From positions 160,639 to 224,638 of the forward strand of contig OZ244954.1 of the NCBI GenBank assembly GCA_965222545.1: a DNA stretch of 64,000 nucleotides. The letters are read 5' to 3'. Below, piece after piece: positions 13,671 to 37,982 of this stretch; position 1 is the stretch's first letter; every line of letters begins with the position of its first letter. The position numbers and the translations under genes are program-made. The notes beneath the pieces were generated by a model. It saw nothing but the letters and a program-made list of their open reading frames with translations, searched no databases and was not told where the DNA came from. The DNA comes from Mycoplasmatales bacterium (GTDB lineage Bacteria > Bacillota_I > Bacilli_A > Mycoplasmatales > G965222545).

Positions 13671-14465
13671 ATGATAAATATTTTATTTTTCGGAGATGTA
13701 TCTGGTGATGTTGGTGTTAAAGGATTAATAGACTATATTCCTTTTTTAAAGAAAAAATTTGCAGTTGATTTAGTTATTGCTAATTGTGAAAACGCAACAA
13801 GACATTTTGGTTTAAGTAAAAAAGATTTTAAAAATTTAACTGAAAATGGAGTTGATATTATTACAATGGGAAACCACACCTTTGATAATAGGGGAATTTA
13901 TGAAATTTTAGGTGAAAAAAAATTAGTAATCCCCGCTAACTGATCAAATAATACAAATGGTAAAGGGTTTGTAATTGTTGAGTGTAAAGGTATAAAAATT
14001 GGAATTGCTAATTTACTAGGAAGAATATTTATGCCACAACTAGTAGAAAACCCCTATATTACATTTGAAAATATATACCAAAATAATAAACCTGATATTT
14101 GATTTGTTGATTATCATGCTGAATCAAATGCTGAAAAATATGCATTTGCACATGAATATGATGGAAAAATATCGGCATTAGTTGGCACACATACACATAT
14201 TCAAAGTGTTGATAATAGAATTTTACCAAATGGAACAGGATATATTTCTGATGTTGGAATGAATGGACCTTATTATAGTATTATTGGTGTTGAATATCCT
14301 GAAAGTATCTATGTTAATAAAACTAGTATGAGAACTAAATTTATTCCAGCTGGTGGCCCTCCACAAGTATGTGCTGTAGTCCTATCAATTAATCCTGAAA
14401 CAAAAAAATGTGAGTGAATTAAAAGAATTTATATTTGTCCAGATGAAAATCATAATGGCAAATAA
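13671..14465 (+). CDS. ymdB: YmdB-family metallophosphoesterase (2',3'-cyclic-nucleotide phosphodiesterase)
   Basis: ILFFGDVSGDVG, ANCENATRHFG, MGNHTFD and GTHTHIQS motifs. Lies close to recA, as in Firmicutes. Confidence 0.8.
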
Positions 14466-15828
14466 TAAATTAGTTATTCCAGAAAATGTTAAAAATATTG
14501 GAATTGGTAAAAAGTATTTTATTAGAACATATGGGTGTCAAAGTAACGTAAGAGATACTGAGGCTATTGCTGGCGTAATGGAACAGATGAAATATACTAA
14601 AGCTGATAGTTTATATGAAGCTGATTTTATAATTTTAAATACCTGTACTATTAGAGATAATGCTGATCAAAAAGTTTTTGGAGAAATTGGTTTTATTCAA
14701 AAATCTAGACGTGAAAATCCAAATCTTATTTTAGCAGTATGTGGGTGTATGGTTCAAAACCCTGAAGTTGTTAAAAAACTTAAAAATTCAAAATGAAACG
14801 TTAATATTGTTTTTGGTACAAATAATATTCATGAATTACCATTACTAATTGAAAATTCATTATTTGAACTATATCCAAGTGTTAATACTAATTTAAATGA
14901 TGATATGATCGTCGAAAACTTACCTTCGGTTAGACATAATCAATATAAAGCGTTTGTTAATGTTATGTTTGGATGTAGTAATTTTTGTACATTTTGTATA
15001 GTTCCTTTTACAAGAGGAAAAGAAAGAAGTAGATCGGTAGACAAAATTTTAGAAGAAATTTTAAAACTTAAAAGTGAAGGTTATAAAGAGGTAACCTTAT
15101 TAGGGCAAAATGTTAATAATTATGGTTTAGATTTAAGACCTAAAATTAATTTTGCGTTTTTATTAAAACAAGTTGCAAAAACAAAAATAGAAAGAGTAAG
15201 GTTTACCACTTCAAATCCTTGAAATTTTGACTATGAATTAATTATTATAATGAGTAAATATAAAAACATTATGCCATATATTCATTTACCAATTCAATCT
15301 GGTGATAATGACATATTAGAAAAAATGAATCGTTCAATGATTATTGAAGAATATAAAGCAATTATTGATGATATAAAATTAAAAATAGAAAATGTATCAA
15401 TATCTACAGACCTTATCGTTGGATTTCCAAATGAATCTAAAGAAGCATTTCAAAAAACTTTAGATTTATATGATTATGTTCAATATGATAATGCATACAC
15501 TTTTATATATTCAAAAAGACAAGGGACATTGGCAGCAAGTTGAAAAGATTCAATTTCTGATAATGAAAAAAAAGCACGACTTGCTATTTTAAATAAAAAA
15601 GTTACCAAATATTCTAAACAGCAAAATAAAAAATTTGAAGGAAAAGTTGTTAAAGTTTTAGTTGAATCTATAAGTAAAAATAATAATAAAGTTTATTCTG
15701 GATATACTCCTCAAATGAAATTAGTAAATATTTTAAATGCTACAAAAAAAGATCTTGGAAACATTATTAATGTAAGAATTATTGCGGCTAAGAATTTTAG
15801 TTTAGATGGAATAAAAATAATACAATAA
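14443..15828 (+). CDS. miaB: tRNA-2-methylthio-N6-dimethylallyladenosine synthase
   Basis: YFIRTYGCQSN at the N-terminus, radical-SAM CSNFCTFCIVP motif and a TRAM tail. Fragments 14410.., 14905.. and 15250.. are in the same frame. The start could be 14443 or 14455. Confidence 0.9.
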
Positions 15829-15847: not shown

Positions 15848-17743
15848 ATGATAAAAAAACGTAAGATTTGATTAATTGTAGGAGTAGTAGCAACACTTTC
15901 GTTAGGTGCAACACTTGGAATAATATTTGGTATTGTATTAAGAAAAAAATCTCAGCAAAATTTAATAGGGATTTCTTTTCCACATGGTTCTGGAATTGCT
16001 TTTAAAGACTCTCATAGTAAAGTTCCAAACGGAAAAAAAGATAAAGAAACAATACTTAATACAACACAATTTCCTGATTATACTAGTCAATATCAACATG
16101 AAAAAAAGCAACCCATAAATGATAACTGACATGGTTCAGTATTTACTGGATATTGAGGTTGAGATAATTATGATCAACCCTTTGATGGGCCAGATATTTT
16201 AAGACAAACTAATTTTACTAACTTTACATTTGGGTTTTTAAATGAACTTGGCAATGACGGAGATACATCAGATATGGATAGAGTAAATACAACATCAGGT
16301 GCAGGTTTTTTAGATCAAATTCAAGAAATCAAAGCACTTGGTGGAGCTGTAACACTTTCTTTTGGGGGATATACTGAACATGAAGGTTCATTTTTTAATT
16401 ATGCACCATCTATATATGTAATGTATGAAAAATTATTGGCACTTGTATTAGGTTATCAAATTTATTCACTAGATTTTGATTTTGAATTTCCACATGAATT
16501 AGCAGATGATAATAGAGCAAATTTAGCTATTGCTTTACAATTATTAAGAGCTGAAGTTAAAAATTTAACTGGTAGAAAAATGCAATATAGATTTACTGAA
16601 TCATATTGAGATGAAGATGAAATTTCAATGTTTAATAAATATATTGGAACTGATTTTATTTATAATGATATGTCATTAACAGCAATATCAGCAGATGGTG
16701 GTTCAAATGCAATTGAAAATGCAACAAATGACCTAAAAATGTTTAGAAAATATACACCTGCCTACAAAGATATGACAGATAAACAAATATATGAACATAT
16801 CGGAATTACAGCCAAAGTTGAAGATGATAAATATAATGAACCAGATAAATTTATACAATGAGCACTTACAAATCATCTTGCTTTAATAGGGTTATGAACA
16901 GTAACACATGATCATAAAAAGAATTCACCAAACGATTCAAATCCTGACCACCAAACTACAAAAAAAGGTAGTGATTATTATTATGTAAATAAATTTACTA
17001 ATGGGTTTCAAAATGTTCTTGAACAAACTAAACCCATCGCTATGCCTGGAGATGTTACAAATCAATATTGCTATTCACATAACAAAAGTAATACAGTTCT
17101 TAAATGAAATCTAGTAAAAGGAGCTACAACTTATGTTATAAAAGAAGGGGATAAAGTAATCACTACAGTTAATAGGACAACCGCTGGTATTAATTATTTA
17201 GATGGCACTGGTGGTACTGCTATTGGAAATCATGTATATTCTATTTATGCACAAAATTCTTTAGGTTTATCATCTAAACCAGCAAACGTTACAGTTAATA
17301 TAACAAAAAATGATCTTTCAACAAATATTGAATACTATGATAAAAACATCCCTTATCATAATAATAATTGAGTAGATAATTCAAAATATGTTCCTACTGT
17401 TCCTTATATTTATTATAAAGGTAATTTTTATCAAAACATAAATAGCGGAAAAGCTAACGGAATTAAAAGAAATGGTCTAAGCCCAGATAAAGATTTTACT
17501 AATTGAAAAGTAATGAAAAATATAAATTCTAATTTTGGATTATCAAATCAAAGAATTACCGATCTAAATAACTTTACATATGATAATTATGTTAAAGATA
17601 CAGATGGTATTCAAACAATTGCTTATAAAACAGGTGATAATACATTAGATCATCATCCTGATAATAATAAATTTATTAATCAATTTAACGGTTTAGGATT
17701 TAAAACAAATCCGGCAATTATTCTTAATAAAAACTTTCTTTAA
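15848..17743 (+). CDS. Membrane-anchored GH18 glycosidase (chitinase / endo-beta-N-acetylglucosaminidase family) with FN3-like, CBM5/12-like and unknown C-terminal modules, copy 1
   Basis: N-terminal TM helix. GH18 catalytic motif SLDFDFE at 16472-16486. FN3-like stretch (LKWNLVKGATTYVI..YSIYAQNSLG). CBM5/12-like stretch W..Y.P..PYIYYKGNFYQN. All fragments are in the same frame. Confidence 0.75.
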
Positions 17744-17860
17744 TAATGATAAATTGAAAATAAGCTTAATAAATATTTTAAATACTACAAAAAATAATTA
17801 TTATTAAATTTATTTATTTCATGTAAAAAATGTTAAAATAATATTTTAAGGAAAAATAAA

Positions 17861-19753
17861 ATGACAAAAAAACGAAAAATTTGAATAATTGCTGGAGTTG
17901 CTGGAGCACTTACATTAGCGGCAACAGTTGGAATAATATTTGGTGTTGTATTAAGAAAAAAAATTCATGAAAATGCAAGTCCTGTTTTTAAACCTGCTGA
18001 TTGAACTGCTTTTAGAAATTCTAAAAGTGTAGTTCCAAATGGAACAGATGGTCAAGAAACAACACTTCCTACAACACAATTTCCTGATTATACTAGCCAA
18101 TATCAACATGAAAAAAAACAACCTTTAAATGATAATTGACATGGTCCAGTATTTACTGGATATTGAGGTTGAGATAATTATGATCAACCCTTTGATGCAG
18201 CAGATATTTTAAGACAAAGTAATTTTACTAATTTTACATTTGGGTTTTTAAATGAACTTGGTAATGACGGTGATACTGCTGATATGAAAAGAGTAAATAC
18301 TACATCAGGTGCAGGTTATTTAGATCAAATCCAAGAAATAAAAGCACTTGGTGGATCTGTAACATTTTCTTTTGGTGGAGCCACTCCTCACGAAGGTTCG
18401 TTTTATAATTACGCACCATCGACATATATAATGTATGAAAAATTATTAGCACTTGTATTAGGTTATAAAGTTTATTCATTAGATTTTGATTTTGAATATC
18501 CACATAATATAACAGATGGAGAAATACGTCATTTAGCTGCTGCTTTACAATTATTAAGAACTCAAGTTAAAAATTTAACTGGTAAAAATATGCAATATAG
18601 ATTTACTCAATCATATTTTGAAGGAAGTGAAATGGATATACTTAATCAATATATAGGTACAGATTTTATTTATAATGATATGTCATTAACAAGTATCTCA
18701 AGTAATAATGATTCGTCTGCAATTTCCCATGCAATTCAAGATCTAGCAGCTTTTAGAAATGTAAATGCTTACAGCAAGATGTCCGACCTCCAAATATATG
18801 AACATTTAGGAATTACAGCTAAAGTTGAAAATGATAGTTATAATAAACCTGATGAATTTGCTGCATGAGCAATTGAAAACCGCCTTGGGTTAATAGGATT
18901 ATGAACAGTTACACATGATCATAAAGAGAACTCACCAAATGATTTAAATCCAGGACATGAAACTACTGGAAAAGATAGTGATTTTTATTATGTAAATAAA
19001 TTTACTAATGGTTTTCAAAATCATATTGAACAAGCTAAACCCACCGCTAAACCAGATGATGTTGCTGGATTGTATTGTTATTCACATAACAAAAGTAATA
19101 CAGTTCTTAAGTGAAATCCAGTAAAAGGAGCAACAACTTATGTAATAAAAGAAGGCGAAAAAGTTATTACTACAGTTAATAGGACAACCGCTGGTATTAA
19201 TTATTTAGATGGAACGGGTGGTGTTGCTATTGGAAATCATGTATATTCTGTCTATGCACAAAATTCTTTAGGTTTATCTTCGAAACCAATAGATATTAAA
19301 GTTAATATAACAAAAGATGATCTATCAACAAATGTTGAATATTATGATAAAAATATTCCTTATCATAATAACAATTGAGTAGATGATTCAAAATATGTTC
19401 CTACTATTCCTTATATTTATTATAAAGGTAATTTTTATCAAAACATAAATAGTGGAAAAGCTGATGGAATTAAAAGAAATGGTCCAAGTCCAGATAAGGA
19501 TTCTGCTAATTGAAAAGTTATGGAAGATCCAAATAATTCTAATTTTGGATTATCAAAACAAAGAATTAATGATCTAAAAAACTTTACATATGATAATTAT
19601 GTTAAAGATACAGATGGCATTCAAACAATTGCTTATGAAAAAGATAAAAACACTCTAATTAATCATCCTGATAATAATAAATTTATCAATCAACTTAATG
19701 GTTTAGGATTTAAAACAAATCCGGCAATTATTCTTAATAAAAACTTTCTTTAA
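17861..19753 (+). CDS. Membrane-anchored GH18 glycosidase, tandem paralog, copy 2
   Basis: Same architecture as copy 1, with SLDFDFE at 18482-18496. Fragments 18284.. and 19520.. share the frame with ATG 17861. Confidence 0.75.
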
Positions 19754-19771
19754 TTATTAATATTAATAATT

Positions 19772-20686
19772 ATGAAAGAAAAAATAATAATCTTAATTGG
19801 TTGTACTTGTTCTGGTAAAACTGGATTAAGTGTTAAATTAGCTAAACAATTTAATTGTGAAATTGTTAATTGTGATGCAACACAATTTTATAAAGAATTA
19901 AACATTGGTACTGATAAAATATCTAAATCAGAAATGGAAGGTATACCACATCATTTAATTTCGTTTCTAGATGTTGAAAAAAATTATAGTATTTCAGAAT
20001 TTAATATAACTGCAAAAAAAATTATTACTGAAATAACTACAAGAAAAAAAGTTCCATTATTAGTTGGTGCAAGCGGACTATATATTTTATCTTTATTATA
20101 TCCATATGTTTTTACAGAAGAAAGAGATGAAGATTTTAGATCTCTTTATGAATTTACCTCAAATGAAGAATTATTAGAATCTTTAAGAAAAATTGATCCA
20201 GATGAAGCAATAAAACTCCATGCTAACAATAGAAGAAGAATATTGAGAGCACTTGAAATTTTCTATAAAACAGGAAAAACAAAAACCCAATTGCTATCTA
20301 CGAAAGATAATAAACCAAACTATAATTTTTTAATATTAGAAATTTGTCTAAAAAAAGAAATTATTGATAAAAAAATAATTGATAGAGCAAATAAACAATT
20401 TGAAAACGGTTTTGTAAATGAGGTTTTTAAAATAATTAGTAAACACCCTAAAGCACCAATATATAATTCATTTCAATCAATTGGATATAAAGAAGTATAT
20501 GACCACATTATTAATAAAAAAAATCTTGAAGAAACAAAACAACTTATTATAAATAGAACTATTAAATTATCTAAAAGACAAAAACAATTTTTTAAAAATA
20601 AATTTGTTAATAAATTTGTTTTTAACAATTTAGGAAAAAATAACATCTTAAAAATAAATAATTTGATTAAAAAGTTTTTGTTATAA
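19772..20686 (+). CDS. miaA: tRNA dimethylallyltransferase
   Basis: GCTCSGKTGLS P-loop, DATQFYKELNIGTDK and IPHHLI motifs. Confidence 0.9.
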   Translation: MKEKIIILIGCTCSGKTGLSVKLAKQFNCEIVNCDATQFYKELNIGTDKISKSEMEGIPHHLISFLDVEKNYSISEFNITAKKIITEITTRKKVPLLVGASGLYILSLLYPYVFTEERDEDFRSLYEFTSNEELLESLRKIDPDEAIKLHANNRRRILRALEIFYKTGKTKTQLLSTKDNKPNYNFLILEICLKKEIIDKKIIDRANKQFENGFVNEVFKIISKHPKAPIYNSFQSIGYKEVYDHIINKKNLEETKQLIINRTIKLSKRQKQFFKNKFVNKFVFNNLGKNNILKINNLIKKFLL

Positions 20687-20695
20687 TTAAAAATA

Positions 20696-23600
20696 ATGAG
20701 TATATTGGTTAAAAATATTTTCTTTAATGTAGAAGTTAAAAATAAAGATGAATTATTTTCATTTATTAGTTCAAAGGCGAAAAATGCAAATGTTGTAGAG
20801 TTTGCTAAAGATGCAAAAAAACTACTTTTAGAAAGAGAAGCGCAAATATCAACAGGATTAGAAAAAAGAATTGCTATACCACATGCTATTGGTAAAAAAA
20901 TAAAAGTTCCAACAGCATATATTTTAAGATTAAAAAAACCTATTGAATGAGAAACACTAGATAATGATAAAAATGTTGATACTATTATTTGTTTATTAGT
21001 TTCAAAAGATGCATCTTCAAACCATTTACAAGCCTTAGCCAATATATCATCTAAATTAATAGATCCTAAAATTATTGAAATTATTAAAACAGGTACTAAA
21101 CAAAATATTTGTAACGCTTTAAATGATCATGGTAAAAAAGAGCCTGTTCAAAAAGTTATAAAAAATAAAAACAACAATAGAAGATTTTTAGTGGGAATAT
21201 CAGCATGTGCAGCGGGAATTGCTCATACATATATGGCTAAAGATAAACTATTTAATGCTGCAAACGAACTTGGTTATGATATTAAAATTGAAACAAGAGG
21301 AGCGTTAACATCTAATACATTATCTGCTGAAGATATTAAAGAAGCTGAAGCTATTGTAATTGCAGCTGATATTGATATTGATAAAAGTCAGTTTAATAAT
21401 AAAAGAATTTATTATAGTAATACAAATGATGCAATAAAGGATCCTCACCAATTTATACAAAATGCTTTAACTGCTAAAGTATATCGAGATAAAGAATTTA
21501 TTAAAAAATCAAAATTACAAATTGCTATGGAAAAAAACTATATTAGTAATTCAATATTTGATACATTTCGTAAATTATTACCATTTTTGGGAATAATAAT
21601 TTTATTTCAAGCGATTCCTTATATTATCTTATATTTAACTCAAAATCAAGTTATTGATACAAGCAACAAAGGAATGGCTAATGCTATATATATCTTTGGA
21701 GTCGACACTAGTACTATTTTTGTAGCATTTGCAGGAATGCTAATTGCTTTAAAAATTGGTGGAAAACCAGCTATGCCAGGTGCATTATTAGGATCATTCT
21801 TTTTAAATAACCCAAGTTATTTAGGGTCTGCATGAAATCATCCTGATAGTGCACTAAGTGTTCAAGGTAATTTATTTACAGGATTAATTTGAGCAGTAAT
21901 TATTGGTATTATTGTTGGTCATCTTTGTCGTTTAATGCGTTATATTAAATGACACAAAGCTATTCAGACAATTGAAGGTTTTTTAATTATTCCAATTGTT
22001 ACTACTTTTTTATCATTTTTAATTTGTACGTTTTTATTTGGTGAAGTATCATTTATATTATGTCAGGTATGAACAGAATTAATGAATTCTAAGATAGCAA
22101 ATCTAGGTATTATTATGTTTATAACTTTTGTTTCACTTATCTTTTATATTTGATTTATTTTCAAAAATAAAATAGAGATGATGAAAAATAATTTAAAGGG
22201 AGTAAGTGTTCCAGCAGTTAAGGAAGTATTTTTTGGAGACTTATCTACAACCTGATTATTTTTAAGTAACTTTGCAATTAAATTTTTCTATTTTGTAACA
22301 CTACAATGATTAATTAAACCATTTATTAAATTATTAAATCATTTTTCTGTAAAAAATAAAAAAGTTGTTGATAAAAAGAAAAATTTATTAAAAATGAAAG
22401 AAGATGGTTTTGTTGCAATTTATTTAGATACAGCAAATAAAAAAAGTTTCCCATTAATTAAAAATGAAATTACAAAAGTAGTTAGATCTACACACAATAT
22501 AGTTAAATTTTTCGAATATAGTAAAAATATTAATATTAAAAATATTAAAAAAGCCAGTCATGTACTTATAGTAAGTGATGACTGCCAATTAATAAATAAA
22601 AATATTTTTTCTGGATATAATGTTGGAATTATTTCAAGTGATATAGCAATTGGTGCTTCAAAAAAAATATTTCAAGATCTAGATAGCTTTACAAATTTTG
22701 AAGGTAAAAGTAAAAAAGTTGGTGTCATAAGAATTGGTAATATTTCTGATAAAAAAAGTATTTTAAAATCATTACTATTTGGTATTAGTTATATGATACC
22801 GGTTGTTGTAGCTTCAGGAATATTAGTTGCTATTCCAAATGCTTTAACAGCGGGAGGAAATGCAAGTGGTGGAACCTGACGATTCCAAAATGCTTTTATA
22901 AAAGACTTATTTAATTTTTCAATTGAAGGATTAAAAATTATGATCCCAGTATTTGGTGGATTTTTAGCCCTAAGTATTGCGGGTGAAGGAGCATTTGTTG
23001 CCGGACTAATTGGTAGTTTTGTTTTGACTGATTCTACATATTTAATTAATCAAACAAATGTTCATTTTTCAATTGACCAAACAACAAATCTTGCTAATAA
23101 TATTAGTGCTGGGTTTTTAGGAGCAATTGTTTTTGGTCTTTTAGCTGGATATATTTATAAACTTTTAGTTCATATAAATCATAAATATATTTATCGTAAA
23201 AATTATATTCCTAAATATGTTAATGATTTTGTTATTCCTGTTATTTTAATATTTATTGTCTTTATTTTTTCAACTTATATAATTGGCGGCGCCTTAGCTT
23301 GAATTATGGGTCAATTATTTAGTGGTTTATCTAGTTTAGGAACTGCAGGTCCTTCCGCTTTCATACCGATTGGAATATTATTTGGTGCCTTAATTGGTAC
23401 TGATTTAGGGGGACCTATTAATAAAACTGCATTAGTGGTAGGAACGTTAATCTTTACAAATGGTATAACAAAAGCAGCTGGCGATCCAAGTGTTTTAGCT
23501 AATGATATTATATTTATTCCCCAAACATCAACACAAGCGGCCATATCAGTTCCACCGTTAGCAATGTTTATATCATCAATAATACTATCACCAAGAAAAT

Positions 23601-24109
23601 TTAATGCAGGTGAACGAATATCTGGAATAAGTGCGTTACCAATGGGATTAGTGGGAATAAGTGAAGGCGCTCTTCCGTTTGCGTTTAGAACTCCAGGAAA
23701 ATGTGCACTTGCAAATATTTTAGGTTGTGGTGTAGCTGGAGGATTAGTTGCTATCTTTAAAATTCATTTCTTTGGAGGTTTAGGTTCACCATTAGCTGTT
23801 ATTGTCGGATATATTGCTAATAATCATAATGTTCTAAGTATATTAACGGCATTTGAATGGATCTTTTCGGTTTTAGCTGGAGTTATGATTTCTGCTACAA
23901 TTTATACACTACTTCGTAAAAAAGATTTAAATAATATTAAAAATTATAATTTAATGAAACAAAATGAAATAAAACGTTTAGTAAGACTTGGTGTTAATGG
24001 TAAAATAAATATTTTTATTTTTAAACAAAAAAGAGGATGTAGAAAATTTGTTAAAAATATTCCTTATTTTATAAATCCAAGAAATTGATTTCACATTCCT
24101 GAGTTCTAA
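20696..24109 (+). CDS. Fructose-family PTS polyprotein IIA-IIB-(N-terminal half IIC)-IIB'-IIC
   Basis: Five track fragments (20696, 21191, 22394, 22940, 23306) all start at 2 mod 3. I checked every junction and the only interruptions are TGA. IIA has AIPHA, IIB has GISACAAGIAHTYMA, and the final IIC has DLGGPINKTA and GISEGALPFAF. TAA at 24107. Confidence 0.8.
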
Positions 24110-24117
24110 GAAGACAT

Positions 24118-26574
24118 ATGAAAAAAAAGATTCATCTAATCCCGCATACACATTGAGACAAGGAATGATATTTTCCGGACCTAATTTCTGATAATCTTTT
24201 TTCTCATAATTTTAATTTAATAACAAGACTTTATAAAAATAATAAGTTAAAGTTAAAAAATTATTTATTTGATGGTCAACTTTCTTTAATTGATGATTTA
24301 CTATCAAATCAACCTGAACTGAGAAATTTAGTTCAAGAATTAGTAGATAAAAAATATATTTATTTAGGTGCTTGATATTCACAACCTGATTTTTATAATT
24401 CAAGTGCTGAGACAACATTTAGAAATATTCTTTATGGTAAACAACTTATAAGTCAATTTAATTTTAAAACTAAAACTATATATTGTCCTGACTCTTTTGG
24501 TTTTAATAATAATTTACCACAAATTTTTAGATCTTTAGGATTTGAAAATTTTATTTTTTGAAGAGGTATGAAAAAAGAAGATGCATTAGATAATGCCTTT
24601 TTTAATTGAGTAGGAATTGATGATACTAAAATAATGTCTTATTGTTACTCAAAAGGTTATTATCCATTTGGTGCAATTTATCCATATAATAATATAAATA
24701 ATCACAATCTAGATACAAGTGCAAAAAAATTTACAAAAGATGCAAAACCATTAGTAGATGAAATATTTACAAGATTAAAAAATAATAATAATGAATGTAT
24801 TATTCCTTTAGGAGGAGATCAAGCACCATATGTTTATAAAGCATATGATTTAATAAATAAAGTAAATAAATTTGATAAAAATTATAACTGACAATGAAGT
24901 ACTCTTGATAATTTTTTTAATAATAAATCGCCCAATAAAATAATCACAGGTGATTTAAATTACCCATATGATTCTAGAATACACAGAACAATTGGCTCTA
25001 GTAGGGTAGACATTAAAAAGTTATTTAGAAAATGTGAAAATAAATTATATTATCATTTAGAACCATTACAAATTTATTATATGCAAATAGATGCTAATTA
25101 TAATCCTAACGTTACAAGGAGAAGAATATTAAGAATAATTTTAAAATCACAAGCTCATGATTCGTTAGGGGGGTGTAATTCTGATATTGTTAATAGACAA
25201 ATATTTGATCGACTTCAAAATGCATTCATTATGTTACAAGGAGAAATAGATTATATTATGAAAAAATTATCTAATTTTTATAAAATCCAAAATAACGAAA
25301 TTCTACTTATTAATACAGCTCCATTTGTTAACAATGTTAGTACTAGGTTTTTTATAAGCAATAAAAGTAAAAAACCATTTAATAAAAAACTTAATGGTAT
25401 AGAAATTATACAAATTGCACCTTCTGTACAAGAGCAAACGGGAACAAGTAAATACTGAAAACATTATTTAGAGCTTATCTCTAGAAAAGTTCCACCATTT
25501 ACCCATAAAATTGTTAAATTTAGTGATTTTAAAGATATACCTATTAGTAATGTTGATGTTGAACATTCAATTAAATTAAAAACCACTGATAATAAAATAA
25601 CATTATTGTTTAAAAATAAGATAATTATTGATAACATACTAGAATTTATAGTAAATAATGATTATGGAGATTTATATGATTATTCACCAAAAAGAATTGG
25701 TGAAAAGGGTAAATGTCTTAATGCAGATTTTGTATTAAAAGAAAAATTAAATACTCAAACTTATTCACAATTTATTTTTAAATTTGTAATTTTAAAAGAT
25801 AAGGTAAAGGGAAAATTGAGAATTAAAATTCGTCACATTGATGAAAAAGTATACGTAAGACTATCGATAAATAATAGGTCAAAACTTATAAAATTAAGTA
25901 CAAATTGATCTATTAATGATTTTGAAAATATTTCCTTTCACCAACATCTTGCAATAAAACCTTATGTTGAAAATCCAATAAAAGATTCATTAAAAAGTAA
26001 TTATCAAGAATATTTATCATCATATACAATGTTTAATGAATTATTATCAATAAAAACTACCGATAATTATTTTAATATTATCACTAATTCAGCTAACGAA
26101 TTTAAAATTAACCATAATCGTCTTAATATTACATTATTTAGATCTGTCAATTACTTAGGTAAAAATGATTTAGCGTGAAGACCAGGAAGAGCAAGTGGTA
26201 TTACTGGACAAATGATAAAAACACCAGATGGACTTTTAAGAAAAAAACTTACATATAATTTTGACATAAGTTTTAATAAATCACCTGAAAAAGTTTATAA
26301 CGATTATCATTTTGCTGGTTCTGCTTATGTAAATAACGAATTTTTAAATCCATTAAATTCAATGTTTGATAATTTTATATTAAATGATATAGTTTATAAA
26401 AATAACATTAATTATAAATGTCCAAATTTAAAGGAAAATTATATAATTTCTGCATTTTATTATAATGAAGGTAAAGTATATTTTAGATATGCAAATCAAA
26501 GTAAACCACAAAATAATTTAAGAAAATATGAAATTGTAACAAAGGTTAAAAAAGTTAAAACTAGTTATGAATAA
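24118..26574 (+). CDS. GH38 alpha-mannosidase (MngB-like)
   Basis: N-terminal IHLIPHTHWDKEWYF, GAWYSQPD and CPDSFGF motifs. Five fragments in one frame. Confidence 0.85.
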
Positions 26575-27922
26575 ATATCATGAAAATTTTTATTGAGGAT
26601 CAGCTTTTAGTGGACCACAAACTGAAAATAAATTTTCAAATGATGGTAGTGGATATTCAATATGAGACTATTGATTTAAAAATAAACCTGAAAAATTTTA
26701 CAAACAAACATTTGTTAAAAATGATTTTTATAAAAATTTTAAAGGTGATATAAAAATTGCAAAGGATTTAAATTTTAATTCATTAAGAACATCAATTCAA
26801 TGATCTAGACTAATTCCAGATGGTAAAAATGTTAACCTAAAAGCAGTTGATTTTTATAATAAATTAATTGATGAAATGCTTAAACATAATATTGAACCAT
26901 TTATAAATTTACATCATTTTGATTTACCGTGATTTGCACAAGAAAAAGGAGGATGAGAAAACCGGGAAGTTATTGATAATTTTGCTTTTTTTGCTAAAAC
27001 ATGTTTTAAATTATTTGGCAAAAAGGTTAAAAAATGATTCACTTTTAATGAACCTGTTGTAACTCAAGAAGCCGGTTATTTATATGGATTACATTTTCCG
27101 CTAGTTCAAGATTTACAAAGATCTTTAAATGTTATGTGAAATCAAATTTTAGCACATAAAAAAGCAGTTAAGGAGTTTAGGAATCAAAAAATACAAGGTG
27201 ATATAGGAATTATTTTAAATATTACACCAATAATTTCAAGAAGTGATAGTAAAGAAGATATGTTAGCTCAAAAATGAGCAGAAATATTTAACTATAGTTG
27301 TTATTTAGATCCAATAGTTAAAGGAAGTTTTCCGCAAGCATTAATTGATGAAGCTAAAGTAAAAAAATATCTTTGAGATATTAAAGATGAGGATTGAGAT
27401 CTTATTAAAGATAATCCTATTAGTTTTTTAGGTATTAATTATTATAATCCACGAAGAGTAAAAGCGGGAAATAAGAAGATAAACAAGCAATTATTACCTA
27501 ATCCATATTACTATACTACATATAAAAAAAAGGATGCTGTTTATAATAAATCTAGAGGATGAGAAATATATCCTAAAGCATTGTATTTAGCAATGAAAAA
27601 TATTCAAAATAATTACGATAATATTAAATTTTACATTGCTGAAAACGGAATTGGTATTCATAACGAAGAACAATTTAAAGATGAAAGTGGAGTAATTCAA
27701 GATAATTATCGTATTAATTTTATAAAAGATCATCTTTTTTGAGTTAGAAAAGCCATTGATGAAGGAGCAAATTGTATTGGATATCATATGTGAACATATA
27801 TCGATAATTGATCGTGAACAAATGCATATAAAAATCGTTACGGTTTTTATGAATTAGATTTAAAAACTAAAAAAAGACACAAAAAACTTTCTGCTGATCT
27901 TTGAATATCGATAATAAAATAA
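26567..27922 (+). CDS. GH1 (6-phospho-)beta-glycosidase
   Basis: FYWGSAFSGPQTE, acid/base motif TFNEP and nucleophile motif YIAENGIG. The start overlaps the GH38 stop by 8 nt. Confidence 0.85.
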
Positions 27923-27948
27923 ACATTAAAAGTTATTATTATTTTGTA

Positions 27949-27968
27949 ATATATATATATATATATAT
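27949..27968. repeat. (AT)10 dinucleotide microsatellite in the intergenic region upstream of the ROK kinase gene
   Basis: The sequence reads gta-ATATATATATATATATATAT-tg. It is flanked by TTGTAA (27944-27949) and by TAAATA (27971-27976), 7 nt before ATG 27983. Confidence 0.9.
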
Positions 27969-27982
27969 TGTAAATATTAAAA

Positions 27983-29002
27983 ATGAATAAAAATGATTTA
28001 ACATTAAATAATTTATATGACATTGATATGATTCAATTAAAAAAAGTATATTTAGAGACAAGAAAAAAAAGAATTGGTCAAAAACCAGACCTAACACCAA
28101 CTTATTTGAAAAGTAGAAAACTATATGCTTCATTTGATATTGGAGGTCATGCTGCACAATTTAAAATTCATTCTAAACGTAAACCTTATTATACAGGTCA
28201 ATTTACTTGTTATGATAAAGAAAAAGAAGATATTTTAAAATGTATTGCTTTTATTGCTAATAATTTTTATATTAAAGATATCTTTATTGCCTGCCCTGGA
28301 GTTGTTAATTCTAAAACTGGTGAAGTTTTAGGAAAAACGGGAATTAAAAATTGAAGCAATTCAAACATAATTAAAGAAATAAAAAAATACATAAGTATTA
28401 AAAGTACAAAAGTTTATATAATAAATGATGCATCTGCCGCATTAATGGGATTAATTAATCATAAGACTAAAGGGATAAGTGCTGTTTTAACTATTGGTAC
28501 TGGTATTGGTTTTGCTTTTTCATTTAATAATAAAATAATTATAGGAAGGCATGGTAATTCAGGTGAAATAGGAAATTGAAGGATTTCTAAAAATGAAAAT
28601 TATATTGAATCTGAAATATGTTCAACAAGTTTTTTTATGAAAAAATATTCTTTACTTAAGAAAAATAGTAATAAAGATAATTTTCAAGATATTTTTGATA
28701 AATACACTAATGATAAAGAAGTAATAAACCTAATTAATGAATGATGTGATAATATTGCTTATTTAATATTAAAAATTGATTTGTTTTTAGGTTTTGAACA
28801 AATTTATTTATGTGGAGGTGTAACCAATTCATTACATTTTAAAAAAATTCTTTTAGATAAAATTAAAGATGTTTTTTTAGAAAATAATTGAGCAAATATT
28901 AAAATTGAATTTGCTAAAAAAGGAATTAATTATGCATTAGAAGGAGTATCCAAACTTAAAAAAAATAATCAAGAAAAGATTCATAATAGTGTAAAGATTT
29001 AA
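27983..29002 (+). CDS. ROK family sugar kinase
   Basis: FDIGGH, ACPGVVNS, NDASAALMG, TIGTGIGFA and GNSGEIGNW motifs. TGA-joined fragments. Confidence 0.75.
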
Positions 29003-29003
29003 A

Positions 29004-29927
29004 ATGATATTAATATTAAAACCAATATATATTTATAAAGTTTGAGGTGATTCAAAACAATTAGCAAAAAATGGTTTTAAAAATTTAAAACCTAATACTG
29101 GAGAAGTATATGTAATGAGTTGTTTAAAAAATAATGAAAGCATAATTATTAATGATAAATTTAAGGGTATTAGTTTAAAACAGGTTTATGAAGAAAACTG
29201 AGAATTGTTTTTTGAAAAAAAATATGATACATTCCCTCTTCTTTTAAAAATTTTATCTGCTAAAAGTGACTTAAGTATTCAAGCACACCCAAATAATGAA
29301 TATGCTTATAAACACGAAAATAAAAGTTTGGGAAAACAAGAATCTTGATATATTTTAGATTGTAAAGAAAATTCTACGATTATTTATGGACATAATGCTA
29401 AAAATAGATCAGAATTAAAAAAATATATTAATGAGAATTCGTGAAATAAACTTGTAACACCTCAAAAAATATTTAAAGGATCTGTATTCGATATTTCACC
29501 TGGAACTGTACATGCAATTAGAGCTAATACATTAATTTACGAAATACAACAATCATCAATGATTACATATCGACTTTATGATTATGATCGTTTAGATCAC
29601 GGAAAATTAAGGGAATTACACACAAATCAAGCTAAGAATGTTATTTATTGTCCACAAAAACTAAAAACAAAAAAAGCGGTTAAAATAAATACCATAAATA
29701 ATAAAGTTGAAATTATTAAAAATATTTATTATAAAACTGAAAAACTTATTTTAAATGATAAGTATTTAATTAAAACAATAAAATCATTTAAAGTTGTAAC
29801 ATGTATTGAAGGAGAATGTAAAATTGAAAATTATAAATTTAAAAAGGGTGAATCGTTTTTACTTTTAAAAGACAATAAATCCTATATTAGTGGAAATGCT
29901 GTTTTTCTTATTTCTAGTTTAAAATAA
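29004..29927 (+). CDS. manA: Mannose-6-phosphate isomerase, class I
   Basis: KPIYIYKVWGG, LSIQAHP, QESWYILD, PGTVHAI and EIQQSS motifs. Confidence 0.8.
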
Positions 29928-29963
29928 ATTTATAAATGATTATATTTTGTACAATTAATTTAT

Positions 29964-30383
29964 ATGAAATATAAAATACAAAAACTAAAACCTAAAAATC
30001 AAAAGGATTTATTTATTTCAGGAGTTAATATTGCTTTTGAAAATGAAATTATTTTAAATAATAAGAAAGTCATAAAAGCATTATTAAAAAGAGAAGATGA
30101 ATTCTCAACAAATTTTGGTCAAGGATTTGCAATTCCACATTGTCAATCTGAATATGTAAAAGAACCATTCTTATTATTTACTTCATTTGATAGTGAAATT
30201 AAATACGGAAAAGAGAAACCAATTATCTTTGCTGTATTTATTTTTTTACCAAAGGCTCTTGCTGGAAATCAAATCAAAATATTATCCATGTTAACAAGAA
30301 AATTAATTTATCCAGAATATCAAAATAAAATTAAAAATTTAGATGAAAAAGAAATTTCTAAAATAGTGAAAAAAATTATATAA
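29964..30383 (+). CDS. PTS fructose-family IIA component
   Basis: Stand-alone 139-aa IIA(Fru/Mtl/Ntr) domain with GFAIPH. Confidence 0.8.
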   Translation: MKYKIQKLKPKNQKDLFISGVNIAFENEIILNNKKVIKALLKREDEFSTNFGQGFAIPHCQSEYVKEPFLLFTSFDSEIKYGKEKPIIFAVFIFLPKALAGNQIKILSMLTRKLIYPEYQNKIKNLDEKEISKIVKKII

Positions 30384-30394
30384 TAAAAAAATAT

Positions 30395-32170
30395 ATGGTT
30401 ACAAAAAAACAAACCAATAAATCATCTATAAAAAAAAATAGTAAAAAATCACAAGATATATATATAGTTGCAGCAGTTGCGTGTCCAGTTGGAATTGCAC
30501 ATACTTATATGGCAGGTGAAGCGCTTGAAAAAGCTGCTAAAGAAAAAAAATATAGTATGAGAGTAGAGTATCACGGAGCATCTGGCTTAGAGGGTGAATT
30601 ATCTTCTCTTGAAGTTGAAAAAGCTGATATTGTTATTCTTTCTTTAGGAAAAGGGATAGATGAATCTAAGTTTTTTGGAAAAAAGATTTATTATACAAAA
30701 CCCGGAAAAACAATTAAGAATCCTTGTTTAATAATTGAAACCGCTTTAAAAGAGGCTACTGTTAATAGTAAAATAGCTAATAGTGAACCTTCTAAGTTTA
30801 ACTCTGGTATAAATGATAAAAAGATAATGTCTTCAAATATTATAAAACCATCTTTTAAAAAAGAAATTTCACATAATGGTTTTTTTAAAGGACTTTTTTC
30901 GTATAGAAAGAAAAGGGAAAGGTATCGCCAAAATTCTACTGGCGGTGGATTAATTGTTAATTCATTATTAAATGGTGTTGGTTGAATGATTCCTGTAGTT
31001 GTTGCGGGAGGAATATTGTTTGCGATTGTTGCAGGACTTGGTCCAACTATTTCTCCTAATTCCTTTAAACATACAAAAACTGGAGTTCCAATCCCGGGTT
31101 CACCTAACCCAGGAACCTTTTGATACGCTATACAACAAGTGGGAATAGCAGGTCTTACATTGATGATTGCAGTTCTTGGTGGATTTATAGCTGTAGGAAT
31201 GGCAGATAAGTTAGCATTTGCACCTGCGTTCATATTATCATGAACTTCTAATTTAAGTGACTCTTCACCAAAAGGACTTAATTTTACGTTTTATGATTAT
31301 ACAAAAGGTGATTTTGGATTATCACACGGACAACTAGGTTTCTTAGGTGCTATTTTAATTGGAATTATAGTAGGATCGATATGTAGACAAATTAAGAAAG
31401 TAAAATGACCTTCTGCAATTAAACCAATTATTCCAATAATTATTGTTCCTGTATGTGTAACACTTTTTGTGTGAGTACTATTAGCGTTTATACTTTGTCT
31501 TCCGATCGCATATATTATTAATGGTATTGTTAATGGAATTAATCAATTAAATAATAAGGGCTTATTTGTGTTATTAGGTCCAATTTTAGGATTTTTAATA
31601 GCTTCTGATATGGGCGGTCCTTTAAATAAAATCGCCTTTACCTTTGGAGCATCTTTATTAGCTGGAAATGCAGATCAGTTTAAAGATGGAGCGTTAATAA
31701 TGGGAGCTAACGGAGCAGCAGTTGGTGTGCCTCCAATTGGAATGGCTATTGCTGCTTTTGTTGGTAAAAAATTTGGTATTATGGATCAAACTGACCGTGA
31801 TTTAGCAAAAGGTTCTATTTTATTAGGATGTATGGGAGTTACAGAAGGTGCGATTCCTTTTGCTGTTAAATATCCAAAATCCGCAATTCCTTCAAATATA
31901 ATAGGAGGTGTGATAGCAGCTACTATTGCAGCTGCAGCTTCTATAACTAATGCAGCTGCTCACGGTTCACTTATTGTTTATTTATTTGGAGCAGTTGGAA
32001 GAGTTAAGCAAGGAAGTCCAGCTGGAGATTATGCATACGGACTTATATATGTTGGAGCATTACTTATTGGATCAATAATAACTGCTACATCAATGTTATT
32101 TTTAACTAAAGTAGTTTATAAAAATAGAAGAGTAAATTCAAACATTAATACCTCTAAAATATTTGGATAA
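30395..32170 (+). CDS. PTS fructose-family IIBC component
   Basis: IIB has AAVACPVGIAHTYMA. IIC has DMGGPLNKIA and GVTEGAIPFA. Fragments 30395.. and 31568.. are in the same frame. Confidence 0.85.
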
Positions 32171-32350: not shown

Positions 32351-33859
<1,509 letters not shown>

Positions 33860-34017: not shown

Positions 34018-34647
34018 TTATAAAGTTTTTAATAAGTTTAATATTTTACTTACAATTTGATCACTGTCTTTATATGAATCTTTTATTATTCATACTTTTA
34101 CTTTATCATTTATGATTCATTCAAGATGAGTTTTTTCTAATTCAACTAAATATTTAATAGGTATATTTTCACCTGGTCTATTTCTATTAATAATTCTTTT
34201 AGAACATTCTTTTGGTTCAACGTCAACATAAATAATAATATCAGATTTAAGATCTATTGAATCATAAAAATGCTTACAAATTTTATATTCAATAGGTGAA
34301 ATTTTACCTTCTCGATATAACATTTTAGTAAAAACATTAGTATCAGTATCAGGACTTCTTTCTGTAATAACAATTTTCTTATCAGTAGCATGAATAGCTT
34401 CTAATAAAGCATTTTTTCTTGTTTGCATTGCAAACGTTTGAAAAGGGAAGGCTCATCTATGTTGATCTTCATAAAATAGATCAATAATGTTTTTATTATT
34501 TTCATCTTTAATTTCTAATCAATGTTTTATTGGTTCGTTTACAAACGCTACTTTATCAGAAATTTGTTTTTTTAGATGAGCTAATAAAGTACTTTTTCCA
34601 CTTCCGATATTCCCGTCAATTGAAATAACTATTGGTTTTTTTCTCAT
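34018..34647 (-). CDS. Deoxynucleoside kinase (dAK/dGK family), paralog 1
   Basis: ISIDGNIGSGKSTL P-loop and ERS motif (VITERSPDTD). Track ORF 34117..34428 extends both ways through TGA. Confidence 0.8.
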
Positions 34648-34673: not shown

Positions 34674-34937
34674 TTATGATAAATTATTTTTAACAAATGA
34701 ATCTTTAATTCCTGCAATTGCTTCTTTTTCGTCTTCACCTTCAGCAGTAATTATAAGTTCAGAATTACACGGAGCACCAAGAGACATTACATGTAGTACT
34801 GATTTTAAATTTGCTTTTTTATCTTTAAAATAAACATTAATTTCACTTTTATATTTCATAGCTTCCTTAACTACTAATGATGCAGGTCTTGCGTGTAATC
34901 CGACTGGATCTGTTATTTTAATTTCTAATTTTTCCAT
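34674..34937 (-). CDS. ptsH: Phosphocarrier protein HPr
   Basis: VGLHARPAS (His15) and NLKSVLHVMSLG (Ser46). Confidence 0.9.
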   Translation of the reverse strand: MEKLEIKITDPVGLHARPASLVVKEAMKYKSEINVYFKDKKANLKSVLHVMSLGAPCNSELIITAEGEDEKEAIAGIKDSFVKNNLS

Positions 34938-34951
34938 ATTTTTTCCTTAAT

Positions 34952-36673
34952 TTAGTTTAATAAATTATTTTTCTTCAAAAATAAATTTACTAATTTTATT
35001 ATATCTTTATTATTATTAATTTTTAATATTTTATTAACAAGTTCTTCACAATCTTTAAGTTTTAAATTATTTATAATATATCTAGTTCTCGGAATTATTG
35101 ATGATGATACTGAAAAATATTTTAAACCAAGACCTAATAGTATTGGTATACTTTGTTTATCTCCAGCAATTGAACCACATACTGCACATTCAATATTATT
35201 TTTAGTTGAACCTTTTATTACAATCTTTAAAGCATTAATAATTGCACGATCTAACGGTTGATATAAGTAACTAACATTATTATTTAAACGATCAGCTGCC
35301 ATTGTATATTGGATTAGATCATTAGTACCAATTGAAAAAAAATCACTTTCTTGAAAAAATGCATCAAGGTTAAAAACAGCAGCTGGTGTTTCAACCATCA
35401 TTCCTACTCGATAATTTAACTTACCACCTATTTTTTTAGCTTCTTCATTAATTATTTTCTTAGCTTCTAAAAATTCATCTAATATAGAAATCATTGGAAT
35501 CATTATTGATATTTGATAATGTTTACTTACTTTTAATAATGCTATTATTTGAGTTCTAAAAATTTCTTTCTTCAATAAACAAAGACGAATAGCTCTTATT
35601 CCTAAAAAAGGATTTAACTCTTTTCCAAATTCATCAGAATGTGAATAATACTTTAATTTTTTATCTCCCCCAATATCTAATGTTCTTATAACAATTTGTT
35701 TACCATTCATTTCCTTTGCTGCTTTTAAATATTGTTCATATTGTTCTTCTTCGGTTGGCCATTTACTATTTTCCATATATAGAAACTCTGTTCTAAAAAG
35801 ACCAACACCATCGGCACCATTCTTTTGAGCAAATCCAGCATCTATTGCGTTACCAATGTTTGCTTCTACATTAATATCATAATTATCTAATGTTTTTGTT
35901 TTCTTAGTACGATAACTTTTTATCTTGTTCATAAGATCTTGAGTTTTTTTGATTTTTGTACTATATTCATTAATAATTTTTTTCTCTGGATTAATTAGTA
36001 TTGAAGAAATATTACTATCAATTATTGCATTGTTACAATCACTAAATTTTTCAAAAATGTTTTCAATTCCAGAAATCATAGGAATTTTTAAATTTCTAGC
36101 AATCAAAGCCGTATGTGATGTTCGTCCTCCAATTTCTGTAATAAAACCTTTAATATTATTTTTTATAATTTGTGATGTTTGAGCAGGTGTAATATCGTAA
36201 GCAACTATAATAACATCTTTAATGTTTTCTAAGTCAATATTTTTTCTATTTTGATATTCAAGAATAAGTTGTTTTCTAATATCTACAATATCTAACAATC
36301 TTTCCTTAAAATATTCATCTTCCATTTGCTGAAATTGTTTATAGTATTTTTCGTAGACATGAAAAAGTGCATTATCACCACCCACTAAATTTTTATCAAC
36401 ATAATCTTTTACTTCCTTTTTCACAACATCATCATTAATAAGCATAATATGTGCTTCAATTATTTCTTTTTGTGTTTTATCAATATCAGTTTTTAATATC
36501 TGTACATTATTATCCTTAACTTTTTTAAAAGAATCATTAATTTTTTGTTGGATATTTTTTATTTTATCATGCGTAATATTGTTAATACTAACATTAAGCT
36601 GTATATCCTTTAAAATAAAAATCTTTGCTTGTGCAATTCCTGAATTACATACTGTTCCCTTTATTTTTTCCAT
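34952..36673 (-). CDS. ptsI: Phosphoenolpyruvate-protein phosphotransferase (Enzyme I)
   Basis: GGRTSHTALIARNL, GLFRTEFLY and FSIGTNDLIQY motifs. Confidence 0.95.
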   Translation of the reverse strand: MEKIKGTVCNSGIAQAKIFILKDIQLNVSINNITHDKIKNIQQKINDSFKKVKDNNVQILKTDIDKTQKEIIEAHIMLINDDVVKKEVKDYVDKNLVGGDNALFHVYEKYYKQFQQMEDEYFKERLLDIVDIRKQLILEYQNRKNIDLENIKDVIIVAYDITPAQTSQIIKNNIKGFITEIGGRTSHTALIARNLKIPMISGIENIFEKFSDCNNAIIDSNISSILINPEKKIINEYSTKIKKTQDLMNKIKSYRTKKTKTLDNYDINVEANIGNAIDAGFAQKNGADGVGLFRTEFLYMENSKWPTEEEQYEQYLKAAKEMNGKQIVIRTLDIGGDKKLKYYSHSDEFGKELNPFLGIRAIRLCLLKKEIFRTQIIALLKVSKHYQISIMIPMISILDEFLEAKKIINEEAKKIGGKLNYRVGMMVETPAAVFNLDAFFQESDFFSIGTNDLIQYTMAADRLNNNVSYLYQPLDRAIINALKIVIKGSTKNNIECAVCGSIAGDKQSIPILLGLGLKYFSVSSSIIPRTRYIINNLKLKDCEELVNKILKINNNKDIIKLVNLFLKKNNLLN

Positions 36674-36753
36674 TTTTCCCTTTTTAATATTAATAATTAT
36701 ATAATTTTCTTAATAAAATATTTATATCAATATATATAATATATAATATTAAT

Positions 36754-37413
36754 ATGAAGTTAATAATTTCTGTAGATGGTAATATCGGAAGCGGAAAAAC
36801 TACTTTTATTAGACATTTAAAAAAAAAATATTCTGATTTAATTGAATTTGTTGATGAACCAATAAATGAGTGATTAAATACTAAAAATAGTGAAGGAAAA
36901 AGTATTTTATCGTTATATTATAATGATCAAAAAAGATGATCGTTTGCCTTTCAAATTTATGCAATGCACACTAGAACTATAGCACTTCAAGATGTAATAA
37001 AAAATAGTAAAAAACAAATCATAGTTACAGAAAGAAGTACTAATACAGATGCTAAAGTATTTACTGAAATGCTTTATACACAAAATAAAATTACTGATAT
37101 GGAATATATTATTTATAAAAAACTTTTTGACTCATTATTAATAAAAGCTGATGCTATTATTTATATTAAAACAGATGCTAATAAATGTCTTGATAGACTA
37201 ATAAAACGGAATAGAAGTGGAGAAAAAATTGAATTATCATATTTAGAAAAACTTCATGATGTTCATGAAAAATGAATAAAAAATACTAAATGAATATGAA
37301 CAATTAATGGTAATGAAAATTATTTTCGTTCAAAAGCATCTGAAGAGAAAATTTTTGATACCTTTATTCAAAAAACAAAAAAATGAGAAAGTGCTAAAAA
37401 ATTAAAAAAATAA
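36754..37413 (+). CDS. Deoxynucleoside kinase (dAK/dGK family), paralog 2
   Basis: ISVDGNIGSGKTTF and VTERSTNTD motifs. Track ORF 36964..37275 extends through TGA codons. Confidence 0.8.
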
Positions 37414-37457
37414 TGTAACTACACTATTTTTTATTTTATTAAAATTTTAGTTATTGA

Positions 37458-37982
37458 TTAATTATTTAGTAGGTTTTCTCTATAATCACCAACAGCACTT
37501 ACTTCTTTAGCCCCAGCAACTATTGATATTATTCCTTGTACAAAAACAATTATGTTAGATATTATTGATAAAACTATTACTATATCTTTATTTGATATAT
37601 TTATATTATCACCACTATTTGTTAATGTAGAAATAATTCCAAAAAATCCAAAAATAATAAATAGTATTCCGCCTATTATATTAATAACTCCCATAAATGT
37701 TACTCATGAAGTTGCGATATGGTCTGATCTTTCAATTTTTTTTATCCCACTATGTAAACATATAATTATAATAATTGGCACTACAGCAATAATTACCAAT
37801 CCTATTATTCGAAACAAAGATAAAGCAATTATTGTATTTGCTTGAGTTATAGAATTTGGGGTTTTTCCTGTAGCTATTACATATGTTATTATAGATAAGA
37901 TAAAAGCAAAAACTAATAATGATATATTTACTCAGTTTAATTTAATTGCTTGTTTTATTTTGTATATATATTTTGTATTCAT
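37458..37982 (-). CDS. Hypothetical polytopic membrane protein
   Basis: Track ORF 37458..37694 extends upstream through two TGA codons to ATG at 37982. Four hydrophobic helices. Confidence 0.45.

Follow-up and report, generated by a model that had tools for sequence, protein, structure and literature searches.

Three separable modules probably make up a 16-kb glycan-related block in a Mycoplasmatales genome

A 64,000-nt stretch of the Mycoplasmatales bacterium assembly GCA_965222545.1 (contig OZ244954.1, positions 160,639 to 224,638, forward strand; hereafter the window) carries at positions 15848-32170 a run of genes for putative surface glycosidases, sugar permeases of the phosphotransferase system (PTS), further glycosidases, a sugar kinase and a mannose-6-phosphate isomerase. 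The question raised by this locus is whether these genes form one pathway, as the original prediction had it, leading from host glycans freed by endo-beta-N-acetylglucosaminidases (ENGases) or chitinases to glycolysis, or whether they merely stand side by side. Our analysis favours the second answer: the 16 kb are probably a juxtaposition of three separable modules, namely a pair of proteins resembling glycoside hydrolase family 18 (GH18), a PTS-GH38-GH1-ROK cassette and a ManA gene with a second PTS, and not one proven N-glycan route.

The window has a GC content of about 23% and belongs to a genome assembled as a single contig of 641,330 bp (24.3% GC, marker-gene completeness 88.85%), the sole member of its family among the 199 genomes of the order that were scored. 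Under translation table 11 the open reading frames (ORFs) of the block are broken up, whereas under table 4 they are long and back-to-back, and the source is thus, to judge by its reading frames, a Mollicute that reads TGA as tryptophan. With table 4 the block consists of ten close-packed ORFs, all on the plus strand, which are separated by -8 to 117 nt and cover 25.5% of the window, in agreement with the predicted quarter. The gene order is miaB, GH18-like a, GH18-like b, miaA, PTS, GH38, GH1, ROK, ManA, IIA and IIBC, followed by a lone 16S rRNA gene, a deoxynucleoside kinase gene and, on the opposite strand, ptsH and ptsI.

The two GH18-like genes, a (15848-17743, 631 aa) and b (17861-19753, 630 aa, 76% identical to a), sit exactly between miaB (14410-15828; a miaB-type methylthiotransferase with UPF0004, Radical_SAM and TRAM domains), which forms the upstream edge of the insertion, and miaA (19772-20686; tRNA dimethylallyltransferase, Pfam 2.9e-63, TIGR00174 255 bits, above cut-off), all on the plus strand. 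In two relatives of other families miaB is immediately followed by miaA. The two copies are 117 nt apart, and this spacer holds a 29-mer (17766-17794, plus strand) that is identical at 27 positions to the 3' coding end of miaB (15721-15749), has no further match in the window and is expected zero times by chance. Because of this miaB remnant, the duplication, of a unit of about 2,045 nt, is placed after the gene had landed beside miaB; in this lineage the GH18-like gene first entered between miaB and miaA, and a tandem duplication on the spot followed. The earlier statement that miaA, which is not a sugar-metabolism gene, is the only interruption of the block holds to the letter but misleads, as it is the pair that lies inside a miaB-miaA unit.

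The GH18-like family is also very rare. Among 1.84 billion representatives, all of which were searched with HMMER, 17 proteins reached E<=0.001 and about six of these were full-length relatives; an indexed homologue search, in which the word index saturates on such an AT-rich protein, returned only the paralogues of the window itself and two remote chitinases. No homologue was found in one metagenome scan or in any of the other 198 genomes of the order. The sole homologue in species-representative genomes is encoded by a Mycoplasmatales metagenome-assembled genome (MAG), OZ253448.1, with 81% 16S identity, where it neighbours an rRNA operon and housekeeping genes (locus L001, 9836-11641). The N-terminus of this homologue is of the lipoprotein type (…SGC…) where the paralogues have a transmembrane (TM) anchor, and about 350 nt separate the gene from the operon, which is complete (16S-23S-5S). 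No match to GH38 was found in the OZ253448.1 genome.

GH38, on the other hand, occurs in 25 of the 199 genomes. In the 20-kb neighbourhoods of eight relatives, a fructose-family PTS was co-located with GH38 in all eight loci and accompanied by GH1 in six, five of which also had the ROK gene, with a gene order that varies among loci; none of the eight had a GH18 homologue or ManA within 20 kb. ManA in turn is found in 112 of the 199 genomes and adjoins a fructose-family PTS gene in 8 of the 13 relatives' loci that were fetched, as it does here (29004-32170). The PTS-GH38-GH1-ROK cassette is thus an older, conserved Mollicute unit present in several genera, the ManA-PTS module is likewise older and conserved in Mollicutes, and the GH18-like pair is a recent addition, inherited independently of the GH38 cassette. 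In some larger Mollicute genomes (G096 and G081) we observed a tandem GH38 pair and, about 13 kb away, a third copy beside fructose-family PTS genes, which suggests that the mannoside system has expanded in these genera.

Even at E<=10, Pfam and NCBIfam return nothing for either GH18-like protein, and the same holds for their close relatives with PF00704, the gathering threshold of which neither they nor the paralogues reach. When searched as a single sequence with phmmer against PDB sequences, however, the protein matches the catalytic domain of a Pyrococcus furiosus chitinase (2dsk, E=4e-8), with its LDFDFE paired with LDFDIE, and a profile of seven family members strengthens this match to 1.6e-18 and adds a Streptomyces exochitinase (9buf, 5e-11). 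D209, D211 and E213 (DxDxE, strand beta4) and G173-G174 (SxGG, beta3) are invariant in 13 sequences, and the beta8 tryptophan is likewise invariant across the family. On these profile and motif grounds the pair can be regarded as divergent members of GH18, with a barrel only about 20% identical to that of the P. furiosus enzyme. The beta6 motif, N-x-M-x-(M/F)-D-Y in bona fide relatives, reads N-D-M-x-L-T in the Mollicute family, a comparison that depends on the alignment. In GH18 the beta6 tyrosine, together with Asp/Asn, supports substrate-assisted catalysis.

Protein a is laid out as an N-terminal TM anchor, a GH18 barrel (about residues 90-395), an FN3 module (about 396-485) and a C-terminal module (about 486-631). 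The FN3 assignment is supported by profile matches to 7jgu (6e-4) and to FN3 of Bacillus circulans ChiA1 (1k85, 1e-3), by a Pfam fn3 match of one relative at 1.9e-5 and by a Foldseek superposition on 1k85 with a TM-score of 0.81 and a root-mean-square deviation of 1.9. Each paralogue has one N-terminal TM helix and the homologues have lipoprotein-like or anchor-like N-termini, a pattern that fits surface-displayed, membrane-anchored proteins. Two surface-anchored GH18 enzymes with FN3 and with carbohydrate-binding modules of the CBM5/12 type had been predicted, and it is the last element that is not supported: the C-terminal module has no match to Pfam PF02839 at E<=10 and no PDB profile match, and hhalign against two CBM5/12 segments gave P=0.03 and a probability of 1.5%. 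The landmark Y-x-G-x-x-Y-Q and a tryptophan do align, so that the CBM5/12 resemblance appears to be one of motif only and is unproven. The 146 C-terminal residues are the best-conserved part between the paralogues. The overall dN/dS of 0.47 (barrel 0.52, FN3 0.26, C-terminal module 0.28) means that both copies are kept by purifying selection.

An AlphaFold model from the single sequence was useless (pLDDT 34), and one from a five-sequence alignment reached a mean pLDDT of 48, with 60-86 in the barrel core and 65-87 in FN3 and with the C-terminal module left unmodelled. The Foldseek neighbours of this low-confidence model are GH18 chitinases, namely ChiA74 of B. thuringiensis (6bt9), which is the top match over the whole length, PF-ChiA AD2 and Streptomyces venezuelae Chi1. 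The profile search gave no ENGase structure at E<=0.01, and the first GH18 ENGase in the fold search, 6kpn, stands at rank 47 (E=8e-4). A chitinase-like or an ENGase-like (EndoH/EndoS-type) activity had been envisaged, and the likenesses favour the former, as the pair resembles chitinases more than ENGases of the EndoH, EndoF or EndoS type. The sequence and profile match is best to the P. furiosus chitinase AD2 domain (2dsk/3a4w/3a4x), from which the pair differs by the low identity, the replaced beta6 Asp-Tyr and the arrangement as two tandem TM-anchored copies. Bacillus GH18-FN3-CBM chitinases (ChiA74, 6bt9; ChiA1, 1k85) are alike in the fold search, at a mean model pLDDT of 48, but the C-terminal module of the pair shows no significant CBM5/12 similarity. 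For an oyster-gut Mollicutes MAG (0.62 Mb), PMC8125052 describes a putative chitinase that joins a catalytic domain like 2DSK to a chitin-binding domain at its C-terminus. To go by that description, this kind of Mollicute protein, there too a prediction, had already been noticed.

The second module begins with a fructose-family PTS polyprotein of 1137 aa (20696-24109, plus strand), in which Pfam and NCBIfam recognize IIA, IIB and IIC. Its domain order is IIA, IIB, partial IIC, Cys-less IIB-like linker and full IIC, the extra partial IIC comprising about five TM helices (residues ~290-490) and the Cys-less IIB-like segment occupying residues ~557-690, ahead of the full IIC. Since both halves of the polyprotein map to one normal-length IIABC gene in relatives, an origin by partial internal duplication or by fusion seems likely. 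The adjoining GH38 alpha-mannosidase gene (24085-26574, plus strand; PF01074 and PF09261, Pfam 4e-35) may start at a TTG overlapping the PTS stop codon (24085) or at an ATG 33 nt further on (24118; MKKKIHLIPHTHWD), the shorter form being more likely because the Pfam match starts just past the ATG. The motifs HTHWD, PDSFG and GGDQ are present. Among NCBIfam models the permease scores best with MngA (236 vs. a cut-off of 763 bits) and GH38 with MngB (324.8 vs. 1138 bits).

In Escherichia coli, MngA and MngB are the PTS for 2-O-alpha-mannosyl-D-glycerate and the GH38 mannosylglycerate hydrolase, and the two systems share a fructose-family IIABC permease directly upstream of a cytoplasmic GH38. 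The cassette differs from this system in having additional GH1 and ROK genes, in the extra partial IIC and degenerate IIB of its permease, and in a genome without a PF02595 glycerate kinase; moreover, no DNA-binding (regulator) Pfam domain was reported in the ten block proteins, a further contrast with MngA/MngB.

The GH1 gene (26567-27922, plus strand; PF00232 1.5e-114) has its best PDB matches in 4b3k and 5foo of Streptococcus pyogenes (1.2e-119) and carries the catalytic glutamate motifs TFNEP and IAENG. It also has the segment WSWTNAYKNRYG, which is identical to WSWLNAYKNRYG of the streptococcal enzyme SPy1599 save at one position, the two having WSWxNAYKNRYG in common. A serine takes the place of the glutamate of ordinary beta-glucosidases, and the phosphate-pocket lysine and tyrosine are present, completing the Ser/Lys/Tyr signature of 6-phospho-glycosidases. 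The phosphate-pocket roles of these three residues are those we take from LacG and BglA structures, and the lysine lies one position earlier than in LacG. The entry 5foo was deposited as a 6-phospho-beta-D-glycosidase, and PMC9075583 lists SPy1599 among characterised 6-phospho-beta-glucosidases; an assignment of GH1 as a putative 6-phospho-beta-glycosidase of the SPy1599 type is supported by these likenesses. Neither GH38 nor GH1 has a TM helix or a signal-like segment, and both are predicted to be cytoplasmic.

In S. pyogenes, too, a GH38 (SpGH38, Spy1604, 2wyh) and a GH1 (SPy1599, 4b3k/5foo) lie in one locus, which has been proposed to finish N-glycans freed by the GH18 enzyme EndoS (PMC2815779) and additionally has GH84 and GH125 (PMC9075583). 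The GH38 of the cassette is far nearer to MngB (1e-96 over the full length) than to the solved S. pyogenes and Enterococcus GH38s (about 1e-22, 2.8e-22 for SpGH38, N-terminal domain only), and EndoS is not related to the GH18-like pair. Our literature search returned nothing relevant on GH38 cassettes of Mollicutes or on a characterised 6-phospho-beta-mannosidase route.

The ROK-family sugar kinase of the cassette (27983-29002, plus strand; PF00480 2.9e-20) is weakly BglK-like, BglK being its best NCBIfam model at 61.5 bits, far under the cut-off. A recent common origin with the second ROK gene of the genome was considered and rejected, as the two share only a 76-residue local match.

The third module comprises a class I mannose-6-phosphate isomerase, ManA (29004-29927; TIGR00218 133.5 bits vs. 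a cut-off of 116.2), and a second fructose-family PTS with IIA (29964-30383; PF00359 7.7e-25) and IIBC (30395-32170; TIGR01427 186 bits, above cut-off), all on the plus strand. A ManA that serves as the exit to fructose 6-phosphate, the second fructose-family system, the mngA-mngB pairing and a GH1-ROK-ManA order like that of gmuD-gmuE-gmuF in B. subtilis had all been foreseen, and the Pfam and NCBIfam assignments bear them out. In the gmu operon as well as here the order is GH1, ROK and class I isomerase. That operon has a cellobiose-type PTS (GmuBAC), the GH26 mannanase GmuG and gmuR between gmuD and gmuE, whereas both PTS of the block are of the fructose family and the block holds no mannanase. 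None of the eight cassette loci that we examined has ManA beside GH1-ROK, and the resemblance to gmu in gene order is therefore confined to this genome. The third module also resembles manP-manA of B. subtilis, in which a fructose-family PTS adjoins ManA. No PfkB/FruK was found in the genome; fructose was rejected as the PTS substrate for this reason, as fructose 1-phosphate would be unusable, and ManA-IIA-IIBC, which resembles the ManP/ManA type, is read by analogy as a mannose module.

The only two PF02378 (PTS_EIIC) matches of the genome are both inside the block, and neither EIIC-GAT nor BPD_transp_2 was found in the genome. Two ABC systems with BPD_transp_1 are Pst-like and Pot-like, and an ABC importer for glycan fragments was rejected as a candidate on that account. 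The general PTS proteins HPr and Enzyme I are encoded by ptsH and ptsI (34674-36673, minus strand; PF00381 and PEP-utilizers domains), 2.5 kb downstream of the block. The three modules plus ptsH and ptsI thus hold the PTS-dependent sugar uptake detectable in this 641-kb genome. About 120 kb from the block lie nagA, nagB and the second ROK gene, the latter transcribed divergently from nagB-nagA (contig 36722-39606, outside the window), and no recognisable importer of N-acetylglucosamine (GlcNAc) is nearby. The trio looks like one for salvage of free GlcNAc, so that GlcNAc catabolism may be possible. A GH20 or GH3 hexosaminidase could not be found in the genome, nor could an importer recognisable as one for GlcNAc or chitobiose. 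A search for glycerate kinase PF02595 likewise found none in the genome, other kinase classes not having been searched, and a mannosylglycerate route would therefore have no outlet for its aglycone.

The promoter scan was uninformative at 24% GC, with 164 promoter-like sites vs. 145 expected, and no terminator-like site was found on the plus strand between the block genes. Operon structure was judged from spacing alone, and co-transcription is possible because the gaps are short and terminator-like sites are absent. Just beyond the block, the 16S rRNA gene (32352-33859) is solitary and the 23S rRNA gene (contig 395014-397921) lies about 200 kb off on the opposite strand; the rRNA operon is split. 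The ptsH-ptsI pair is flanked by two deoxynucleoside kinase paralogues (34018-34647, minus strand, and 36754-37413, plus strand).

The way in which the modules may work can be outlined as follows. Most likely, the GH18-like pair would act on chitin, from the diet or from the host, as chitinases of the P. furiosus ChiA type, and its products would feed the ROK-NagA-NagB genes elsewhere in the genome. In the cassette, the MngA-like PTS would import and phosphorylate a small alpha-mannoside, from which GH38 would free mannose 6-phosphate (Man-6-P). The remaining beta-glycoside would be phosphorylated by ROK, unless it had already been phosphorylated through the PTS, and GH1 would then cleave the phosphorylated beta-glycoside to a hexose 6-phosphate and a free sugar. 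ManA with IIA and IIBC would serve mannose uptake, with ManA turning all Man-6-P into fructose 6-phosphate.

Several points weigh against this account. The loss of the beta6 Asp-Tyr, if the alignment is right, means that chitinase activity is not assured, and the chitin route appears incomplete because no enzyme to split chitobiose (GH20 or GH3) and no GlcNAc or chitobiose importer was recognised. The specificities in the cassette derive from remote homology, the MngA, MngB and BglK scores all being far under the equivalog cut-offs. Given the completeness of 88.85% by marker genes, the absences are not absolute. Finally, a co-directional run with gaps of at most 117 nt would allow co-expression of all modules.

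The alternative that survives best, although we consider it unlikely, is the integrated route itself, in which GH18 ENGases free host N-glycans, the PTS takes them up, GH38 and GH1 yield Man-6-P and GlcNAc, the latter is phosphorylated by ROK, and ManA leads to glycolysis. The mngA-mngB pairing, the SPy1599-like GH1 and the streptococcal precedent of a GH38-GH1 locus proposed to act after EndoS (PMC2815779; PMC9075583) are all in its favour, as are the single co-directional run, the availability of ROK-NagA-NagB to use freed GlcNAc and a match of Pfam GH85_C to the FN3 region of one GH18-like family member. What is not supported is the integration of the three modules into one route, and in particular the place of GH18 as its first step: chitinases are the neighbours in both the profile and the fold search, the inheritance of the family is independent of that of the cassette, the pair is a separate insertion inside miaB-miaA and neither GH20 nor GH3 was found. 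Since GH38 and GH1 bear no export signal and the search for trimming enzymes outside the cell revealed neither a mannosidase nor a hexosaminidase, Man5-9GlcNAc would also have to enter through the PTS, which we consider implausible. By analogy with the streptococcal locus (PMC2815779), a host N-glycan route may operate on small core fragments, but the evidence supports neither its GH18 step nor the use of whole high-mannose glycans.

It is quite unlikely, in our estimate, that the block serves a set of unrelated dietary sugars, with the first PTS and GH38 taking mannosylglycerate as in E. coli MngAB, GH1 and ROK taking beta-glucosides, the second PTS and ManA taking mannose and the GH18-like proteins taking dietary chitin. 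Mannosylglycerate is a compatible solute of algae and microbes, MngA and MngB are the best models for the PTS and GH38, and in relatives the ManA-PTS module occurs independently of the cassette. The listing of SPy1599 as a 6-phospho-beta-glucosidase (PMC9075583) agrees as well. Nevertheless, the MngA and MngB scores lie far under their cut-offs and no PF02595 was found for the aglycone, and the linkage of GH1 and ROK to PTS-GH38 in five of eight Mollicute loci, and of GH1 in a sixth, favours one shared substrate over separate ones.

A more specific proposal, which we regard as a long shot, is that the cassette dismantles the alpha-mannosyl-beta-mannosyl-GlcNAc core in two phosphorylation-dependent steps, with GH1 as a 6-phospho-beta-mannosidase and with a GH18 clade lacking the beta6 Asp-Tyr recruited to release the fragments from host glycoproteins. 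If this were true, GH1 would supply the beta-mannoside-cleaving step that is missing from Gram-positive N-glycan models.

Very improbable is a non-nutritional role of the GH18-like pair, either as a colonisation factor breaching a chitinous host barrier or as an adhesin for chitin or glycans whose catalysis is weak or altered: the lost beta6 Asp-Tyr, the stronger constraint on the non-catalytic FN3 and C-terminal modules (0.26-0.28 vs. 0.52 in the barrel), the lipoprotein-type or anchor-type N-termini of homologues and the failure to find a hexosaminidase or chito-oligosaccharide importer would agree with it, but the invariant DxDxE, SxGG and beta8 tryptophan point to retained catalysis and ROK-NagA-NagB is available to consume GlcNAc.

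In the reading as three separable modules, which we prefer, the block appears largely to set the diet of this uncultured host-associated Mollicute, namely mannosides, mannose and perhaps chitin-derived sugars, because the only PF02378 matches of the genome are found here, EIIC-GAT and BPD_transp_2 were not found and both ABC systems examined are of non-sugar types. The GH18-like family, very rare, invisible to Pfam and seen just after its duplication in place, is a tractable example of niche-specific gene gain within a shrinking genome. As the cassette is shared by several Mollicute genera, solving the substrate of one of its members would annotate many genomes and could fill a gap in models of N-glycan catabolism.

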